Notes: generated by a model from the sequence alone, not told the origin. A DNA stretch of 64,000 nt from an uncultured Eubacteriales bacterium (GCA_964574445.1 CAZNNQ010000001.1:18446-82445); one strand, 5' to 3'. Positions 2,742 to 64,000 are shown, numbered from the stretch's first letter. Made by a program: numbers and translations.

Positions 2742-3306
2742 ACATTAATCCATGAAATATTACAATATCTCTTAAACCTTCCGGAAAACCAAGTCCTTCA
2801 GTTTTAAATTTCCATTCATCATTTTTTTTAAAAATCGATCCAATGATTATACCTGTTTCCATAGAAAACTCATTTTTTAAATCAAATCTTATTAACTCAT
2901 CATTTTTTTCATCATCAATTATCTTTAAATATGAGCTTTCTACCTGACCAAAATTTTGTTTCTTTTTTTCTCCTTCATGAATGCTTACAGCGAAAACAAT
3001 TTTATGGACCTCCGAAGGCAACTTATCAAGATAAACTATTATCTCTTCTTCCCCTTCTTCCCCCGTTTTATTATCACCTAAATGTAAAATTGAACCGGAT
3101 GGATCTTGTTTGTTGTTATAAAAAACAAAATGCTTGCTGCTTAATGCCAATCCTTCCAAATTACATAAAAATACAGAAGAATCAAAATCAAACTTGTTGT
3201 TATCCTCTTTTTTGATATCCCATCCTAGAGCAATTTTTATCTTTCTTAAACCAGGATTGTTTTTTGTAATATCAATTTCCTGACCCTTCAGTACTCTTAC
3301 TGCCAA
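2740..3306 (-). CDS. terD: TerD-family stress/tellurite-resistance domain protein
   Basis: TerD domain (VLKGQEIDITK..., GWD, FDFDSSVF, GDNKTGEGEGEE-like acidic Ca-binding loop). The ORF track starts at 3324. GGGAGGG then 8 nt then TTG at 3306 gives the typical MAVRVLKGQ N-terminus. Confidence 0.85.
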   Translation of the reverse strand: MAVRVLKGQEIDITKNNPGLRKIKIALGWDIKKEDNNKFDFDSSVFLCNLEGLALSSKHFVFYNNKQDPSGSILHLGDNKTGEEGEEEIIVYLDKLPSEVHKIVFAVSIHEGEKKKQNFGQVESSYLKIIDDEKNDELIRFDLKNEFSMETGIIIGSIFKKNDEWKFKTEGLGFPEGLRDIVIFHGLM

Positions 3307-36607: not shown

Positions 36608-37336
36608 TTAAACCAGCAAGATAAATTCATCAGACTTTCTATACTTAATGTGCCCCATATAAAGAGCTCTTCCAATTACTACAGCTTCAAATTCTTCATT
36701 TGAGGCTGAACTAAGAAATTCAACATCCAGTAGAGAAGAGATGCCGCCAGCAACTATAATTTTATAGCCGATCCGGTCTGCTAGTTTTATTGCTCCCTTT
36801 AACAATGATTTGTCTTTAGGTTCTTTTTTTGTTATATCAGTTACTATTGCCATTCTTAAACCTAAATCATATAATTCCTGAAGTTTTTCTTCAGAATTTA
36901 TATGTATTGGATTATTAAATCCCTCAACTGCGAATTCTCCATTTTTCAAATCAATACCAATAATTATTTTATTGAGATTAGCATGAAAAAGTGGATCATT
37001 TATAAGGCTTTTTCGGAAATTAGAAATATTAATAACAACATAGTTTGCTCCAGCTTCCAGGGCTCTGTTCAAGTCGTATGGAGTTGAAACTCCTCCTGAA
37101 TAATAGATGGAACATTTAACTTCTTCTTTTATTTCTTTAAGTACTTCTAGATTTTGAGGAGAGCTTTTAAACAAACCATCATAGTCGGTAAAATAAATTT
37201 CTTCAGCACCTTTGTTGATCCAGTATTTTGTAACTTCAACGGGATCGTGATCTCTGAATTTTTCTTTAATGTCTTGGTTAGGAACAAAAACAACAAATTC
37301 ACCACAGCGTACATCTACAGCTGGGATAATTTTCAT
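36608..37336 (-). CDS. HisA/HisF-family (beta/alpha)8-barrel protein, divergent paralogue
   Basis: 242 aa; MKIIPAVDV, SGGVSTPYDL, IDLKNGE, VAGGISS, VIGRALY match the HisA/HisF scaffold. The usual DI.RDGT.G segment is replaced by TDITKKEPKDKS. Confidence 0.7.
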   Translation of the reverse strand: MKIIPAVDVRCGEFVVFVPNQDIKEKFRDHDPVEVTKYWINKGAEEIYFTDYDGLFKSSPQNLEVLKEIKEEVKCSIYYSGGVSTPYDLNRALEAGANYVVINISNFRKSLINDPLFHANLNKIIIGIDLKNGEFAVEGFNNPIHINSEEKLQELYDLGLRMAIVTDITKKEPKDKSLLKGAIKLADRIGYKIIVAGGISSLLDVEFLSSASNEEFEAVVIGRALYMGHIKYRKSDEFILLV

Positions 37337-37728: not shown

Positions 37729-38999
37729 CTATATTAAAGCTTTTTTACCTATATCTTTTCTATAATGAGCTCCTTTAAAAGTTACCGATTCCACTCTTTT
37801 GTAGGCATTCATTATAGCTTCCTCTATTGTTGAACCTAGGGCTGTTACTCCCAGAACCCTTCCACCGCTGGTAAGGATTTTGTCCCCATCCTTCTTTGTA
37901 CCCGCATGAAAAATAAAGGAAATATTTTTAATATCAGAAGCTGGCTCAGTAAAAAATATCTCTCTGTCTTTTGCATATTTACCTGGATATCCCTCTGCAG
38001 ACATTACGATACATACTGAGGCTGAATTTTTCCACTCGATCCTTTGATTTTCTAGGGTCTCATCTACTACAGAAATCATAATATCAACAAGGTCACTTTC
38101 AAGTCTTGTAAGAACAACTTGGGTTTCTGGATCTCCAAAACGAGCATTAAATTCTAATACTTTAACTCCTTGAGGAGTAAGCATAAGTCCTGCATAAAGC
38201 ACTCCTTTGTAAAGTCTTCCCTCATTTTTCATCCCATCTACTACAGCTTTAAATACCTTCTCATTTACAAAAGATGCAATTTCTTCTGTATACATAGGAG
38301 CTGGTGAATATGCTCCCATTCCTCCAGTATTTAGCCCCTCATCGTTATCAAAAATTCTTTTATGATCCTGAGCTGAAACCATAGGAATAATAGTTGTACC
38401 ATCTGTAAAGGCTAAAACACTCACTTCTTGCCCTTCAAGATACTCTTCGATTAAAACTCTGTTTCCCGCTTCTCCAAAACTTTTCTCACCCATAATTTCA
38501 TCTAAAGCATTTTCAGCCATTTTTTTGTCATACAAACAAAAACACCTTTACCTTGAGCAAGGCCATCTGCCTTGATAACGCATGGAATACCAACCTCATC
38601 AAGGTACTTTTTTGCTTCCTCATATTCAGTAAATACTTGATACTTTGCCGTTGGCACGTCGTATTTTTCCATTATCATCTTTGAAAAAGCTTTGCTGCCT
38701 TCTATCTCTGCTGCTGAAGCTTTCGGTCCAAATGCCTTTATGCCATTTTTTTCAAGAATATCTACAAGACCAAGAGTAAGAGGCAATTCTGGGCCAATTA
38801 CTGCAAGATCTATATTTTTTTCATTACAAAAATCAACAATTTTATCTATTTCATCTACTTCAATAGAAATATTTTCAGCTACAAGCCCTGTTCCTGCATT
38901 TCCTGGGGCACAATATACTTTTGTAACTTTTTTACTTTGAGCAATTTTCCAACATAAGGTATGTTCTCTTCCGCCACTTCCAACTACTAAAATCTTCAA
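37729..38999 (-). pseudogene. purD: Phosphoribosylamine-glycine ligase, reading frame split at an A7 run (frameshift, sequencing error or recoding)
   Basis: ORF 38502-38999 is the PurD N-domain (MKILVVGSGGREH...GKGVFVCMTKK then WLKML*). ORF 37729-38535 continues in the -1 frame with ...MAENALDEIM...EEYLEG... to a normal PurD C-terminus. The junction is ACAAAAAAATGG (T-run 38520-38526 on the plus strand). Confidence 0.9.
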
Positions 39000-54826: not shown

Positions 54827-54994
54827 CATAGTATCCTTATAAAAAAATAAAATTTTCCTTTCCCGTCTCGGTCCCTTACAGGCTCAGAGCAGAAGTAAAA
54901 ACATTCAAATATTCATTTTTTAATTTTTAAGATAAAGTATGACTCCAAAGGATGCCATCTAGGCAATATTAAAATACACAAATATATTTGTCAA
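54827..54994 (-). promoter_or_regulatory. pan operon promoter and ~130-nt upstream leader (unclassified cis-regulatory RNA candidate)
   Basis: TTGACA (54994-54989), 17 nt, TAATAT (54971-54966). The 5' GGCATCCTT (54956-54948) can pair with AAGGAT..GCC (54838-54825), which overlaps the terminator 5' arm. Confidence 0.5.
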
Positions 54995-58976: not shown

Positions 58977-59284
58977 CAAAAAAAGACCTGAGGTAATCTC
59001 AGGCCTTAAAAATACATTATCTCCCAAAACCCCTACTTCCCAAACGAGATAGCTCAACCCTGTAAACCGGGATGTTTACGGGACAGTGTTACAGATATTT
59101 TCTGCAACCCCAGCAAGTAACTTTGAGTTCGTTATCTGCTTCGGCGATCTTTCCTTCCCTTTAGTTTCTAAGTTTCTCAGACTCCACTAAAGGCTGTTAA
59201 AAACCGCTCCTCTACCTCACTAAGTTTTAAAGTGAGGTTATACTTATCAGATAAAATTATACATCAATACAACTTATAAAACAA
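58977..59284 (-). promoter_or_regulatory. Lysine riboswitch (L-box) with promoter and terminator
   Basis: Minus strand carries TTGTTT, 17 nt, TATAAT (59284-59256). L-box core (59218-59046): GAGGTAGAGGAGCG...GCCTTTAGTGGAG...AAAGGGAAGG..ATCGCCGAAGCAG...TTGCTGGGGTTGCAG...CTGTAACACTGTCC...CTATCTC. Terminator GGCCTGAG-ATTAC-CTCAGGTC plus T7 (59005-58977). Confidence 0.9.
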
Positions 59285-59313: not shown

Positions 59314-61224
59314 TTATAGGCTTCTTTCTATTGTCTCTTTTAATACTCTTGCCTTAAACTCTTCCAAAGCTACGGCCCCAAGGTCACCCTCGCCTCTTTT
59401 TCTTAAACCAACCGCATTATTTTCAACTTCCTTATCTCCAATAATTAACATATAAGGAACTTTTTGCAGCTGAGCTTCTCTGATTTTAAAGCCAATCTTT
59501 TCATTTCTATTGTCAATCTCTGTTCTGATTCCAGCACTTCTTAATTCATTATATACTTTTTGGGCATATTCATTATGTTTATCTGTTAATGTTAAAATTT
59601 TTGCCTGAACTGGAGCAAGCCATACAGGGAAAGCTCCTGCAAAGTGTTCAATTAATATCCCAATAAATCTTTCTATACTACCAAAGGCTACAGTATGAAT
59701 TGTAATTGGACGATGTTTTTCATTATCCTTACCAATATAAGTAAGATCAAAACGTTGAGGCATTTGGAAATCCAATTGAATTGTGCCACACTGCCATGTT
59801 CTGCCAAGACAATCTTCTAGTTTAAAGTCAATCTTAGGACCATAAAAAGCTCCATCACCTTCATTAATTGTAAAGGGTTTACCTAGCTCTTCAAGAGCTT
59901 TTTTCAATGATTCTTCAGCATTTTCCCAATCTTCATCAGCACCCATTGAATCCTCTGGTCTCGTAGAAAGCTCAATTTTATATTTAAATCCAAATTTTTC
60001 ATAAATTTCATCAATTTTATTAACTACATTTTTAATTTCATCTTTAATTTGCTCTGGAAGCATAAAGATGTGGGCATCATCTTGAGTAAATGCTCTTACT
60101 CTCATTAAACCATGAAGTGCCCCTGAAAGCTCATGACGATGAACTCTACCAATTTCACCAAGTCTTATTGGGAATTCTCTATAAGAATGAAGATCACTTC
60201 TATAAACCATAAATGCTCCTGGGCAGTTCATTGGCTTTATTGCATAATCTTCATCATCAATTTTCAAAGTATACATGTTATCTCTATAATGATCCCAATG
60301 TCCAGAAGTTTCCCAAAGTTTTTTATTTAAAATTATTGGTGTCTCAATTTCAACATAGTTTTCTCTTTCATGAACCTCTCTCCAATATTGAAGAAGAAGA
60401 TTTTTTACTTTTGTACCTTTTGGAAGAAAGAAGGGAAATCCGGGACCCTCTTCCATAAGAGTGAACAATCCTAATTCTTGTCCGAGTTTTCTATGGTCTC
60501 TCTTTTTTGCTTCTTCAATAAGGTTTAAATAGTTTTCTAAATCACTTTTCTTTGGAAAAGATGTACCATATATCCTTTGAAGCATTTTATTATCTGAATT
60601 CCCTCTCCAATATGCCCCAGCAACATTTAAAAGTTTAACAGCCTTAACATGGCCAGTTGAAGGAAGGTGTGGACCTGCACAAAGGTCGATAAATCCTCCA
60701 TCAGTATAAACACTAATCTGAGTATCTTCTGGAAGATCTTTAATTAACTCAACCTTATAGTCTTCCCCAATTTCTTTAAATAATTTTATTGCTTCATCTC
60801 TAGGGAGTTCTTTCCTTACAAACTCATGGTTTTCTTTTACGATTCTTTCCATTTCTTTTTCAATTTTTTCTAAATCTTCTGGTGTAAAAATATGTTCAGA
60901 ATCAAAATCATAATAAAAGCCGTCTTTTATCGCAGGACCAATAGCAATCTTAGTTCCTGGAAAAAGTTTTTTTACTGCCTGAGCCAATATGTGGGAAGAA
61001 CTATGACGAAAAGTATCTTCACCTTCTTCATCTTCAAAGGTTAAAAGACTTAATTCTGAATCTTTATCTATTGGAAAATCCAGATCAACGACTTTCCCAT
61101 CTACTTTTGCTGCAAGAGCTTTTTTCTGCAATCCCCTGCTGATATCTCCCGCTACTTCAAAAGGAGTAACAAAATCTTTTTCAAACTCTCTAACTGAACC
61201 ATCTGGTAATTTAATTTTTAACAT
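59314..61224 (-). CDS. thrS: Threonyl-tRNA synthetase
   Basis: MLKIKLPDGSVREFEK... (TGS domain), class II motifs, C-terminal anticodon-binding domain. ATG at 61224 follows GAAAGGTGAG. The 35-aa ORF-track extension lies in the T-box leader. Confidence 0.96.
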   Translation of the reverse strand: MLKIKLPDGSVREFEKDFVTPFEVAGDISRGLQKKALAAKVDGKVVDLDFPIDKDSELSLLTFEDEEGEDTFRHSSSHILAQAVKKLFPGTKIAIGPAIKDGFYYDFDSEHIFTPEDLEKIEKEMERIVKENHEFVRKELPRDEAIKLFKEIGEDYKVELIKDLPEDTQISVYTDGGFIDLCAGPHLPSTGHVKAVKLLNVAGAYWRGNSDNKMLQRIYGTSFPKKSDLENYLNLIEEAKKRDHRKLGQELGLFTLMEEGPGFPFFLPKGTKVKNLLLQYWREVHERENYVEIETPIILNKKLWETSGHWDHYRDNMYTLKIDDEDYAIKPMNCPGAFMVYRSDLHSYREFPIRLGEIGRVHRHELSGALHGLMRVRAFTQDDAHIFMLPEQIKDEIKNVVNKIDEIYEKFGFKYKIELSTRPEDSMGADEDWENAEESLKKALEELGKPFTINEGDGAFYGPKIDFKLEDCLGRTWQCGTIQLDFQMPQRFDLTYIGKDNEKHRPITIHTVAFGSIERFIGILIEHFAGAFPVWLAPVQAKILTLTDKHNEYAQKVYNELRSAGIRTEIDNRNEKIGFKIREAQLQKVPYMLIIGDKEVENNAVGLRKRGEGDLGAVALEEFKARVLKETIERSL

Positions 61225-61243: not shown

Positions 61244-61472
61244 TAAAATAAAAAATACCCCTCAATCCCAATGGGACGAGAAGTATCGCGGTTCCACCCA
61301 AATTGCACTATATGAATATATAGTACCACTCAATACTCTTTAACGCAGAAATACGGTTGTCATTAAACAACAGCTCCAAGGTGGTATGCTCCAAATATTT
61401 CCTAAGAAAACTTCCAGCCTCGGTTTTCTCTCTCTGTAAGGTTTATTTAAAACACTTGTCCTCTTCAATGCT
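61244..61472 (-). promoter_or_regulatory. T-box riboswitch, Thr (ACC) specifier
   Basis: Minus strand shows stem I with AGAGAGAG/GGAAG motifs, specifier loop GCATACCACC (ACC at 61385-61383), T-box sequence AATTTGGGTGGAACCGCG (about 61304-61287), and terminator CTCGTCCCA/TGGGATTGAG plus a T-run. Confidence 0.92.
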
Positions 61473-61497
61473 TAATATTTTATTTAGCTATAAATAG

Positions 61498-61984: not shown

Positions 61985-63106
61985 TTAAGTTCTGTGTTTT
62001 AATAGTAGAGCAGATATAATTGCTGTAATAGGTATGGTGGCAACTAAAGCTATTGTTCCTATTAGAGCTCTAATAATTTCATCTGCTAGCATCTCAAAAT
62101 TTATCAAATGTAAAAAAGGTAAATCATAAGCCATAAGTAAAAGGAGTAAGGGAAGCGAAGCCCCTGTGTAGGCCAATACTAAAGTATTTGTCATTGTACC
62201 CATGATATCGTTACCCACATTCATTCCGGCTTTAAACAAACGAGGGAAAGTCATTTTTTCCCCTGCAGTAGCTATCTCTTCGATACTTGATGCTATGGAC
62301 ATACAAACATCCATTACAGCTCCAAGTGCTCCAAGAATAATTCCAGCTAACAAAATTCCTTTCATATTATATTCGGCAAACTCTGGTACATAAAAAAGCA
62401 TCTTGGATTCTTCAGAGCTTAGTCCAGTCAAGTTTGCAGCATTACTTACAATAATAGCAAGAATTGCTGCAAAAACTAAACCAAATGCTGTTCCTAAAAA
62501 TGCTGCTAAGGACTTTCTAGTAAGTCCACTAACTATTGCAAAGGTTATAAAAGCTATTATAATTGCAGAAAAAATTGTTACTAAGACCGGACTTCTTCCG
62601 GCAAATATTTGAGGTATCATGATTTTATAAATAACTAAAAATGTTATCCCCAGAGAAATAATCCCTTTAAGTCCTTTGCTTCTTCCTATAGCAAGCATAA
62701 GGAACATAAAAACACCAATTAGCAAATAAATATAAGTATCTCTTACAAAATCAACAACATATGCTTTTTGATATCCGGATTCATCATATAAAACAGAAAG
62801 TAGAACTCGGTCCCCTTCTTGAACATATATTTCATAACCAGGTGAATTTATATAACTGTTTTCTATTTGTACTTTATTTCCCTTAAAATCTCCAGAGGTT
62901 ATTTCTACCAATATTCTCTGATAATTTTCTAGTATTCCTTCGGATATTTCTTTTTCAAGTTCTTCTTCATATATTTCTAAAACTTTCCCTTTTGCATATT
63001 CTTCAGACAAATTGAATTCATCAATTTCTTCTACTCCAAAACTAATCCCAATAATTGGACTAATTATAAAAAACAATAAAAATAAAATGATTATCTTTTT
63101 ATTCAT
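61985..63106 (-). CDS. YibE/F-family integral membrane protein
   Basis: 373 aa; N-terminal signal/TM, ~110-aa extracytoplasmic domain, then ~7 TM segments typical of the YibE/F family. 13 nt upstream of the DtxR-family gene. Confidence 0.7.
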   Translation of the reverse strand: MNKKIIILFLLFFIISPIIGISFGVEEIDEFNLSEEYAKGKVLEIYEEELEKEISEGILENYQRILVEITSGDFKGNKVQIENSYINSPGYEIYVQEGDRVLLSVLYDESGYQKAYVVDFVRDTYIYLLIGVFMFLMLAIGRSKGLKGIISLGITFLVIYKIMIPQIFAGRSPVLVTIFSAIIIAFITFAIVSGLTRKSLAAFLGTAFGLVFAAILAIIVSNAANLTGLSSEESKMLFYVPEFAEYNMKGILLAGIILGALGAVMDVCMSIASSIEEIATAGEKMTFPRLFKAGMNVGNDIMGTMTNTLVLAYTGASLPLLLLLMAYDLPFLHLINFEMLADEIIRALIGTIALVATIPITAIISALLLKHRT

Positions 63107-63163: not shown

Positions 63164-63193
63164 TTGCTATATATCATACTTTTCTGTTATAAT
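63164..63193 (+). promoter_or_regulatory. Putative extended -10 promoter for the tRNA-like RNA
   Basis: TTGCTA (63164-63169), 18 nt, TGtTATAAT (63185-63193). Confidence 0.5.
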
Positions 63194-63204
63194 TTAATCA
63201 AATA

Positions 63205-63291
63205 GCTGAAGGAATTTTGTGGTGAAATGGTATCATCTAGGTTCGTGGCACCTAGGTTAAAGGTTCGAGTCCTTTCTAACTTCCTTGTAGC
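63205..63291 (+). ncRNA. tRNA-like RNA (cloverleaf with canonical T-arm and D-loop GG, His-like GUG loop, non-canonical extended acceptor, no CCA)
   Basis: Helices read directly from the sequence: 63205-16/63278-91, 63220-23/63232-35, 63237-42/63250-55 (loop TCGTGGC), 63259-63/63271-75 (loop TTCGAGT). Flanked by a promoter and a terminator. Confidence 0.6.
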
Positions 63292-63292
63292 A

Positions 63293-63320
63293 GCGCATCC
63301 AAGGGGTGCGTTTTTTTTTG
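63293..63320 (+). terminator. Rho-independent terminator of the tRNA-like RNA
   Basis: GCGCATCC-AA(G)-GGGTGCG followed by T9. Confidence 0.75.
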
Positions 63321-63357
63321 CAAAAATTACCCCGGATAATTATAGCTACTCCGGGGT
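63321..63357 (-). terminator. Terminator after pgsA / small ORF
   Basis: ACCCCGGA/TCCGGGGT 8-bp stem (63329-36/63350-57) followed on the minus strand by AATTTTTG. Confidence 0.6.
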
Positions 63358-63362
63358 CAAAA

Positions 63363-63461
63363 TTATCCAATATTAAAGAAATTTAATAAAAGCCTTATTG
63401 AAACAACGCCAACTATAATTCCAATTATAAGAAACAGCCAGTCTTTTTTTATCTGATCCAT
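63363..63461 (-). CDS. Unannotated 32-aa single-TM micro-ORF downstream of pgsA
   Basis: AAGGAGAGG RBS then 6 nt then ATG. Reads MDQIKKDWLFLIIGIIVGVVSIRLLLNFFNIG*, followed by a terminator hairpin. Too short for the ORF track. Confidence 0.4.
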   Translation of the reverse strand: MDQIKKDWLFLIIGIIVGVVSIRLLLNFFNIG

Positions 63462-63477: not shown

Positions 63478-64000
63478 TCAAATATCATCAATTTTTATTT
63501 TAGTATTAAGCTTTCTTACATAGTCAACACCTGACCATAAGGTAAAAAACAAAGCAATATAAAGAAATGCTTCTCCTATTGGAAAATTAATAAATTGACT
63601 GTAAAAATCTTCTAATAGTATCAGCGAAATCGCTATAATTTGTGTTACAGTTTTTATCTTTCCAAGATGACTTGCCGAAACGACAACACCTTCAGCAGCA
63701 GCAACACTTCTTAGACCAGTTATTGCGAATTCTCTGCCTAATATTATGAAGGCAGGCCAAGCGCTGATTTCACCTAATTGTACTAATGATATCAGTGCAG
63801 CTGTAACAAGCAATTTGTCAGCAAGAGGATCCATAATCTTGCCAAAATTTGTAATTTGTTTTCTTTTTCTTGCAATATAACCATCGAGTCCATCTGTACT
63901 AGCAGCAAGAATAAATATAAAGGCAGCTAAATATTTACCATAGGTTATTTTTACAAGTAAGAAGAACATAAAAACAGGAATTAAAAAAATCCTGCCAAGA
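63478..64000 (-). CDS. pgsA: CDP-diacylglycerol-glycerol-3-phosphate 3-phosphatidyltransferase (N-terminus beyond window end)
   Basis: CDP-alcohol phosphatidyltransferase motif DGLDGYIARK....FGKIMDPLADK. The reading frame stays open to position 64000 (..LGRIFLIPVFMFF..). Confidence 0.9.
   Translation of the reverse strand, partial: LGRIFLIPVFMFFLLVKITYGKYLAAFIFILAASTDGLDGYIARKRKQITNFGKIMDPLADKLLVTAALISLVQLGEISAWPAFIILGREFAITGLRSVAAAEGVVVSASHLGKIKTVTQIIAISLILLEDFYSQFINFPIGEAFLYIALFFTLWSGVDYVRKLNTKIKIDDI

Follow-up and report, generated by a model that had tools for sequence, protein, structure and literature searches.

What kind of RNA is encoded between the YibE/F gene and pgsA in this stretch of DNA, a tRNA that decodes histidine codons or a tRNA-derived molecule that does something else? 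The stretch (the window) comprises 64,000 nucleotides (nt) from an uncultured Eubacteriales bacterium, and all positions follow its whole-window numbering. The gene lies on the plus strand and is labelled as a tRNA by automatic tools: ARAGORN reports tRNA-His(GUG) at 63213-63284, and the Rfam tRNA model RF00005, run with Infernal, gives 63213-63283 a score of 41.7 bits, where the threshold is 29 (E = 2e-05 in the whole-window search), with two non-standard acceptor pairs flagged. Comparison with its relatives shows that the element is real, conserved, lineage-restricted, and unusual. Four features suggest to us that it is probably not a standard decoder but a putative non-decoding small RNA, derived from a Firmicute-type tRNA-His and closed at its ends: an invariant C at position 33, insertions and deletions (indels) in the acceptor among close relatives, two lineages in which G-1 or C73 is lost, and the absence of an encoded CCA.

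The unit consists of the following parts, with the cloverleaf given in the Infernal/ARAGORN register:

63164-63193, plus strand: sigma-70-type promoter found by a promoter scan, with -35 TTGCTA (63164-63169), an 18-nt spacer, TG (63185-63186), and -10 TATAAT (63188-63193)
63200-63212, plus strand: leader AAAUAGCUGAAGG, holding the clamp strand GCU (63205-63207), AAGG (63209-63212), and G-1 (63212)
63213-63283, plus strand: tRNA-His-like cloverleaf (ARAGORN and RF00005)
63213-63219 and 63276-63282, plus strand: 5' and 3' strands of the acceptor, A1 being 63213
63220, plus strand: U8
63222-63236, plus strand: D arm, with stem GUGA/UCAU and loop AAUGGUA
63238-63254, plus strand: anticodon arm, a 5-bp stem plus a C26-G44 pair
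63243-63249, plus strand: anticodon loop U32-C33-G34-U35-G36-G37-C38, with C33 at 63244 and GUG at 63245-63247
63255-63258, plus strand: variable loop of 4 nt
63259-63275, plus strand: T arm AAAGG-UUCGAGU-CCUUU
63283, plus strand: C73, which pairs with G-1 (63212) and is followed by CUU, not CCA
63284-63291, plus strand: trailer CUUGUAGC, without CCA, which pairs with the leader
63292-63320, plus strand: intrinsic terminator found by a terminator scan, a 9-pair hairpin at 63292-63312 (core GCGCAUCC / GGGUGCG) with T9 at 63311-63319

From the position of the -10 element we infer that transcription starts near 63200; the predicted transcript is ~115-120 nt long, including a ~13-nt leader, an 8-nt trailer, and the terminator. 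Leader and trailer pair with one another through G63212:C63283, G63211:C63284, A63210:U63285, and A63209:U63286, and then through GCU (63205-63207) with AGC (63289-63291). An earlier, sequence-only reading of this locus had described the architecture in outline, and the scans and alignments bear it out with respect to the promoter and its upstream TG, the terminator hairpin and its T9, the orientation opposite to both neighbours (YibE/F at 61985-63106 and pgsA at 63478-63969, both on the minus strand), the loop UCGUGGC with C at position 33, the T arm, the lack of an encoded CCA, and a helix that runs past the end of the tRNA. Its register was partly wrong, given that the tRNA-His call includes an acceptor of seven positions and G-1:C73, the pair that is the hallmark of bacterial tRNA-His. 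The D arm is better read as GUGA/UCAU than as TGGT/ATCA, the two supposedly unpaired nt at 63276-63277 belong to the 3' strand of the acceptor, the discriminator said to be missing is C73, and the proposed 6-bp anticodon stem is best seen as five pairs plus C26-G44. To speak of degraded identity elements was likewise an overstatement for the window copy, where G-1:C73 and GUG are intact and U8, G18-G19, the T loop, and G37 are all present. Whether the tools see an ordinary tRNA has a divided answer: they do call tRNA-His with a 7-position acceptor, but RF00005 scores range from 30.2 to 51.4 bits across the variants described below, against 69.7 for E. coli hisR run alike.

Searching genome contigs with the YibE/F protein yielded five loci from uncultured Clostridia, Eubacteriales, and Peptococcia genomes, four of which carry a tRNA-His-like gene at the equivalent position. 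The fifth (L003) is uninformative; its contig begins within a MatE gene just upstream of YibE/F, and the pgsA contig of the same metagenome-assembled genome (MAG), L026, stops just past pgsA. Further members were collected through pgsA homologues and their contigs, giving ten distinct variants: the window copy, L001, L008, L004, L002, L029, L005, L013, L027, and L028. Gene order is constant: pgsA / a 32-residue open reading frame (ORF) / the RNA gene (opposite strand) / (MatE) / YibE_F / a DtxR-MntR-type regulator / T-box-thrS. The -35 element, the extended -10 element, and their spacing are kept in all ten variants, and a covariance model built from them finds exactly one copy in each member locus and none in the outgroups. 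This presence of a single copy per syntenic locus, each with a conserved promoter and terminator, supports our reading of the gene.

The occurrence of the RNA is confined to one narrow Clostridia/Peptococcia clade. The outgroups (Desulfonispora and Peptococcaceae MAGs, with pgsA 70-74% identical) have the order pgsA-pgpA-...-cinA-recA and no tRNA at the locus, so the gene arrived there in the ancestor of the narrow clade. Outgroup loci L016, L019, and L031-L033 keep the common Firmicute order rimO-pgsA-pgpA-...-cinA-recA-recX-rny; in the RNA clade, in contrast, pgsA is followed by the 32-residue ORF, the RNA, and the YibE_F-MntR-thrS block, which places the RNA at a rearrangement junction. Scanning for a C33 His loop combined with a T loop recovered a single additional member from the metagenome collection and nothing from viral contigs; the other matches were chance hits or resembled the 3' end of transfer-messenger RNA (tmRNA). 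This pattern demanded U32, so loops like those of L013 (C32) and L028 (A32) would be missed. A blastn search against phage genomes gave no matches. The C33-loop pattern also matched L006 (8210-8242) and L007 (42-74), contig ends from IMG/VR with sequences ending in GGGGGTTCGAATCCCCCCCTCTCCGCCA; these resemble tmRNA 3' ends and are probably prophage attachment sites.

The anticodon loop and the elbow are what the family keeps. C33-G34-U35-G36-G37-C38 is invariant in 10/10 variants, with U, C, or A at position 32, and U8, G18-G19, and the T loop are also kept in all ten. A canonical decoding tRNA-His has the near-universal U33 of the U-turn, and C33 in every variant is a departure from it: U33 is found in 57 of 59 other distinct tRNAs drawn from the sequences fetched for comparison, and the six other tRNA-His genes in that set all have U33 and an encoded CCA. 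No variant of the ten encodes CCA. Across the variants, pairing is complete (100%) in the D, T, and terminator stems and in the outer clamp and reaches 96% in the anticodon stem, with two-sided (compensatory) changes at 27:43, 31:39, 50:64, and 51:63. Most variants have A-U or G.U at the T-stem pairs 49:65, 50:64, and 51:63.

The acceptor behaves differently. In the window its seven positions include two non-pairs in the RF00005 alignment, U3.C70 and U6.U67, and in a structure-aware alignment fitted to our own model, pairs 3:70, 4:69, and 6:67 are open in 4-5 of the ten variants. The same alignment shows pairs 1:72 and 2:71, the leader/trailer pairs -1:73 to -4:76, and the outer GCU/RGC clamp to be almost always paired, with a double change from AU to GC at -3:75. 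L013 has three consecutive pyrimidine-pyrimidine mismatches in the acceptor; L001, L004, and L008 have one additional nucleotide in its 3' strand; the acceptor of L027 is one pair shorter; and that of L028 is fully paired (7 bp) but ends in U73. G-1:C73 (63212:63283 in the window) is found in most variants, although the L001 type needs a bulge to hold the register and L029 has A at -1, so that a G:C pair at -1:73 can form there only with a bulged U. A regular 7-bp acceptor maintained by compensatory change is thus not what we find, given the mismatches in the window copy and in the family and the indels in the strands.

Folding predictions agree that the closing helix is a part of the transcript: in all ten full transcripts, the minimum free energy (MFE) structure contains both the closing helix and the terminator. 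When the acceptor is reduced to its processed form (a minihelix of G-1 to 7 with 66 to 73, plus CCA), seven of the eight types reach a predicted stability of just -2.3 to -5.8 kcal/mol, and in four of those types the minihelix is not the MFE structure. With leader and trailer included, the acceptor helix reaches -8.5 to -13.1 kcal/mol. For comparison, the tRNA-His acceptors of E. coli and B. subtilis, with sequences entered by hand, give -14.1 and -12.7 kcal/mol, respectively.

A pre-tRNA would be expected to keep its 7-bp acceptor and let its flanks drift; this family does the opposite, which points away from a standard decoder. The sequence-only reading had proposed a mimic rather than a working tRNA, which is the more likely view and is favoured by C33 in 10/10 variants, the loose acceptor, the missing CCA, and the better-kept flanks. 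The rate of change may be a further indication. The RNA unit is 71-92% identical (8-29% different) between genomes whose ThrRS is 80-92% identical, which would seem fast for a sole essential tRNA.

Several observations weigh against a non-decoding RNA. Both tRNA finders call tRNA-His above threshold, the window copy keeps the main HisRS identity set (G-1:C73 and GUG), and an invariant anticodon loop is just what a decoder needs. tRNA genes without CCA are normal in Firmicutes. C33 occurs in two phage tRNAs of the comparison set, and the canonical tRNA-His copy on the phage contigs L101 and L076 has two U.U mismatches in its acceptor. Our structure-aware alignment, by the way it was made, favours structure. 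The variants are closely related, so covariation events are scarce. Shuffled trailers equal or beat the real leader/trailer duplex in 6-536 of 1000 shuffles; the duplexes alone are therefore unconvincing, and the extension is supported instead by conservation and by the whole-transcript folds. Finally, in ~30 clade and outgroup loci (~20-kb pieces, roughly 0.5 Mb, including another 20 kb of the L004 chromosome) we found no other tRNA, canonical tRNA-His included. Given that these pieces hold no other tRNA of any kind, the RNA could be the only tRNA-His of its clade.

This brings us to the reading of the gene as a real, possibly sole tRNA-His, which we consider a genuine possibility but on the unlikely side. 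The gene would encode a monocistronic CCA-less precursor whose flanks pair by chance; maturation would involve RNase P cleavage that retains G-1, 3' trimming, and CCA addition, after which HisRS would charge the product and CAU and CAC would be decoded despite C33 and a weak acceptor. Besides the ARAGORN and Rfam calls and the missing second tRNA-His, such a tRNA would explain G-1:C73, GUG, G37, and the elbow nucleotides in the window, the invariant anticodon loop, and a strong conserved promoter and terminator of the kind that stable RNA genes have. The fully paired 7-bp acceptor of L028 is consistent with it, as is the GG/CC helix end, which permits a G:C pair at -1:73 in several registers (L027, L029). 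It has to accommodate C33 in every variant, acceptor pairs 3-6 broken in about half of them, acceptor-strand indels between close relatives, A-1 in L029 and U73 in L028, flank pairs that are better kept than acceptor pairs, a processed acceptor helix that is barely stable, and scores 20-40 bits under E. coli hisR. The outgroups, with no tRNA at this locus, make the gene a clade-specific insertion or duplicate. Its orientation also argues against a decoder. GC skew on the plus strand is negative throughout the window (-0.12 to -0.24 in 4-kb windows, at 31-35% GC) and nearly all window genes are on the minus strand, so the RNA gene is head-on to the presumed direction of replication; head-on (lagging-strand) orientation is unusual for Firmicute tRNA genes.

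The remaining alternatives accept an unusual RNA, or none, and explain less. It is improbable that the RNA is a His-charged donor outside translation, feeding a tRNA-dependent aminoacyl transferase in the manner of the Staphylococcus non-proteinogenic tRNA-Gly that supplies cell-wall synthesis. The T-stem pairs 49:65, 50:64, and 51:63, A-U or G.U in most variants, would suit this role, such pairs being weak EF-Tu binders; C33 and a weak acceptor would reduce ribosomal use, G-1:C73 is retained in most variants, and the neighbour pgsA is a membrane-lipid gene. But neither the window nor the related loci contain an aminoacyl-transferase, MprF-like, or Fem-like gene, CCA is absent and the paired ends speak against an efficient maturation, G-1 is missing from L029, and G18-G19, altered in the Staphylococcus precedent, are kept. 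A tRNA-His pseudogene in decay, or what is left of an integration site, in either case without function, could account for the low tRNA score, the acceptor mismatches and indels, the missing CCA, and the insertion sequence (IS) elements that adjoin the RNA in L004. The sequence-only reading would have settled on a pseudogene had any transcript been absent and conservation and covariation been lacking; instead, promoter, terminator, D, anticodon, and T arms, and loops are kept in ten variants while the YibE/F proteins are only 74-87% identical, and stems show the compensatory changes at 27:43, 31:39, 50:64, and 51:63. Conservation together with these changes excludes decay, and we regard this explanation as very improbable. 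We rejected an integration-site remnant as well: all variants share trailer, terminator, 32-residue ORF, and pgsA, which leaves no element junction within the gene, the window has no integrase, and the IS elements of L004 are secondary insertions. Scarcely credible, too, is a Y RNA of the YrlA type that tethers Ro60/Rsr through an irregular closing helix, an analogy drawn in the sequence-only reading. The tRNA-like module, the long, imperfect, bulged terminal helix, and the stand-alone unit are shared features. Yet RF02553, with a threshold of 69, gives just 13.4 bits and aligns only over the T arm and terminator, and a Ro partner leaves the invariant His anticodon loop unexplained; in YrlA, moreover, the RNA ends are not in the acceptor-like arm. 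As the sequence-only reading had noted, the window has no rsr/Ro60 gene: Pfam scans of its ORFs over the 64 kb detect no TROVE/Rsr, RtcB, HisRS, aminoacyl-transferase, or integrase, and the related loci have no TROVE/Rsr or RtcB gene either.

Further candidates were considered and rejected. A small peptide, suggested by a Shine-Dalgarno-like AAGGA followed by GUG/AUG, would be read in frames that cross the terminator, and L005 (AACGG) lacks the AUG. Membership in the Streptococcus SpF41 family is not supported by RF02435, whose 20.6 bits (E = 0.35 when 191 nt were searched) fall far short of the threshold of 52. Neither ARAGORN nor Rfam reports a tmRNA in the window.

How might a non-decoding tRNA-His derivative work? 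The acceptor arm is a long irregular helix with a loose interior (3-6 with 67-70), and the transcript's ends, through G-1:C73, 3-4 further pairs, and the GCU/RGC clamp, are kept paired and lead straight into the terminator hairpin. Such a closed end would make the RNA a poor substrate for RNase P, for RNase Z and CCA addition, and for HisRS, whereas C33 would disfavour ribosomal decoding and would remove the U33-G34-U35 motif used by tRNA-guanine transglycosylase. The product would be a non-chargeable look-alike that offers the anticodon and elbow of tRNA-His to some molecule that reads them. Our preferred candidate for this partner, as speculation, is a His-specific T-box leader, which reads anticodon and elbow and then probes for a free NCCA end; what the data support is that the RNA differs from an ordinary decoder. 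The conserved surfaces of the RNA are the two that Stem I of a T-box contacts, and the third contact, the free NCCA, is absent; this is why we prefer a decoy or anti-inducer among possible mechanisms. On a His T-box the RNA would mimic a permanently "charged" tRNA. Alternatively, the partner may be HisRS or another protein that binds tRNA-His. That the RNA acts in trans as a non-chargeable mimic of this kind, as an anti-inducer or buffer of histidine-responsive T-boxes or of another sensor such as HisRS, is a speculative idea and some way from probable. A His T-box was not seen in any sequence examined, which counts against it. A T-box leader does lie nearby, at 61269-61477 (minus strand, 116 bits), upstream of thrS (59314-61224, minus), and it is kept with thrS in all related loci. 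We rejected this leader as a partner, since it precedes an ORF with TGS, tRNA_SAD, and tRNA-synt_2b domains, is conserved with it, and is unrelated to histidine.

The answer matters in either case. Should these genomes hold a canonical tRNA-His at another site, the gene would be a clean natural case of a tRNA duplicate recruited to a non-decoding job, with C33, a closed acceptor end, no CCA, and an intact anticodon loop and elbow as the signature of such recruitment. To our knowledge there are very few bacterial precedents, namely B. cereus tRNA-Other and YrlA. A non-decoding role would indicate a regulator able to recognise the His anticodon, and a T-box decoy would be without natural precedent as a tRNA decoy that acts in trans on a riboswitch. 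If the RNA is instead the sole tRNA-His, histidine codons in a free-living bacterium are read by a C33 tRNA with an acceptor that can bear three consecutive mismatches, which would challenge assumptions about U33 and about what RNase P, HisRS, and EF-Tu need in an acceptor. Under either reading, the automatic label "tRNA-His" masks an unusual gene.

Literature searches on C33 tRNA-His, bacterial pseudo-tRNAs, and T-box decoys found no description of such an RNA. With the bacterial tRNA-His of Firmicute type (RF00005, encoded G-1) it shares the cloverleaf, U8, G18-G19, the T loop, GUG-G37-C38, a 4-nt variable loop, and, in the window, G-1:C73. It differs in having C33, largely open pairs 3-6, acceptor strands of variable length, no CCA, and paired, conserved flanks, in the loss of G-1 in L029 and of C73 in L028, and in scoring 30-51 bits rather than 69.7. 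Similar in one arm are phage-borne canonical tRNA-His genes, which have the same D arm, UG-GUGA-AAUGGUA-UCAY. These genes (U33, G-1, C73, CCA) are carried by the large phage contigs (IMG/VR) L101 (~2870-2942, minus strand), L076, and L037, and share the D arm UGGUGAAAUGGUUAUCAC and an AGUU variable loop with the window RNA; L037 also carries tRNA-Pro and tRNA-Val genes with C33.

The pseudo-tRNA tRNA-Other of Bacillus cereus serves as a tRNA-like part of a bigger RNA with a regulatory role (PMC3399842). It responds to iron, flanks a genomic island, derives from another isotype, and is found in longer transcripts with long 5' and 3' extensions (PMC3399842). Both it and the RNA described here are tRNA-derived Firmicute genes that deviate from decoders, with a functional transcript proposed to extend beyond both ends of the tRNA; as an observation only, the iron response there has a counterpart here in a neighbouring DtxR/MntR-family metal regulator. 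They have no sequence relationship, and the window unit is compact. Its paired, conserved flanks, C33, and loose acceptor lend indirect support to a comparable role outside translation, as an RNA that retains its flanks. The Staphylococcus non-proteinogenic tRNA-Gly genes are alike in being extra copies with weak T-stem pairs, expected to cut EF-Tu and ribosome use, and with synthetase identity kept. They differ in having a regular acceptor that is charged and an altered G18-G19, whereas the window RNA has an irregular, closed acceptor, an intact G18-G19, and no transferase gene nearby. YrlA (RF02553) and SpF41 (RF02435) resemble it as small stand-alone RNAs in which a tRNA-like T arm is combined with a long terminal helix, but both score far under threshold, and no rsr gene accompanies it. 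SpF41 gives the best sub-threshold resemblance in Rfam, its model aligning end to end with the transcript through closing helix, hairpin, T arm, and terminator; it is an uncharacterised small RNA of Streptococcus (PMC6064168).

The space around the RNA gene is more crowded than the sequence-only reading supposed. The gene does lie in the 370-bp gap that it described, but the gap also contains, on the minus strand, a conserved hydrophobic ORF of 32 residues, MDQIKKDWLFLIIGIIVGVVSIRLLLNFFNIG (63363-63461), directly downstream of pgsA, and a terminator hairpin of its own (63329-63357). The ORF is called at 32-33 residues in relatives and at 43 in L028. Its hairpin stands back to back with the RNA terminator, so that the ends of the two convergent units are ~10 nt apart. 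Other plus-strand units are few in the window: two DUF881 genes, an Aminotran_4 gene, and an Rrf2 regulator.

One relative, L004, is a complete Peptococcia chromosome of 1.9 Mb. Its RNA unit lies between IS/transposase ORFs and has nonetheless kept promoter, RNA, and terminator intact, an observation in favour of our main reading. As seen at 5200-9900 of L004 and in L125 (146748-167542 of the same chromosome), the chromosome has many IS3- and ISL3-type elements and split ORFs, among them the YibE/F gene adjoining the RNA and, in L125, a BCCT transporter gene in three pieces. These split ORFs suggest genome decay or long-read indel errors.

Pfam scans describe the remainder of the window as housekeeping: ffh, cdaA-glmM, leu/ilv, pur, pan, and cysK genes, an amino-acid ABC transporter, thrS, the MntR-like regulator, YibE_F, and pgsA. 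Further regulatory RNAs are a lysine riboswitch at 59042-59222 (minus strand, 93 bits), upstream of the amino-acid ABC transporter (SBP_bac_3 / BPD_transp_1 / ABC_tran), and a pan motif at 54859-54961 (minus, 49.8 bits), upstream of DUF2520-panB-panC. Inside the pur operon, purD (GARS) is divided between two overlapping minus-strand ORFs, 37729-38535 and 38502-38999, one with GARS_N and the start of GARS_A and the other with the rest of GARS_A and GARS_C; the split is either a frameshift or an assembly error. A lone gene of the His_biosynth family (HisA/HisF-like; 36608-37336, minus strand) lies between a PFOR gene and purD, away from any his operon.

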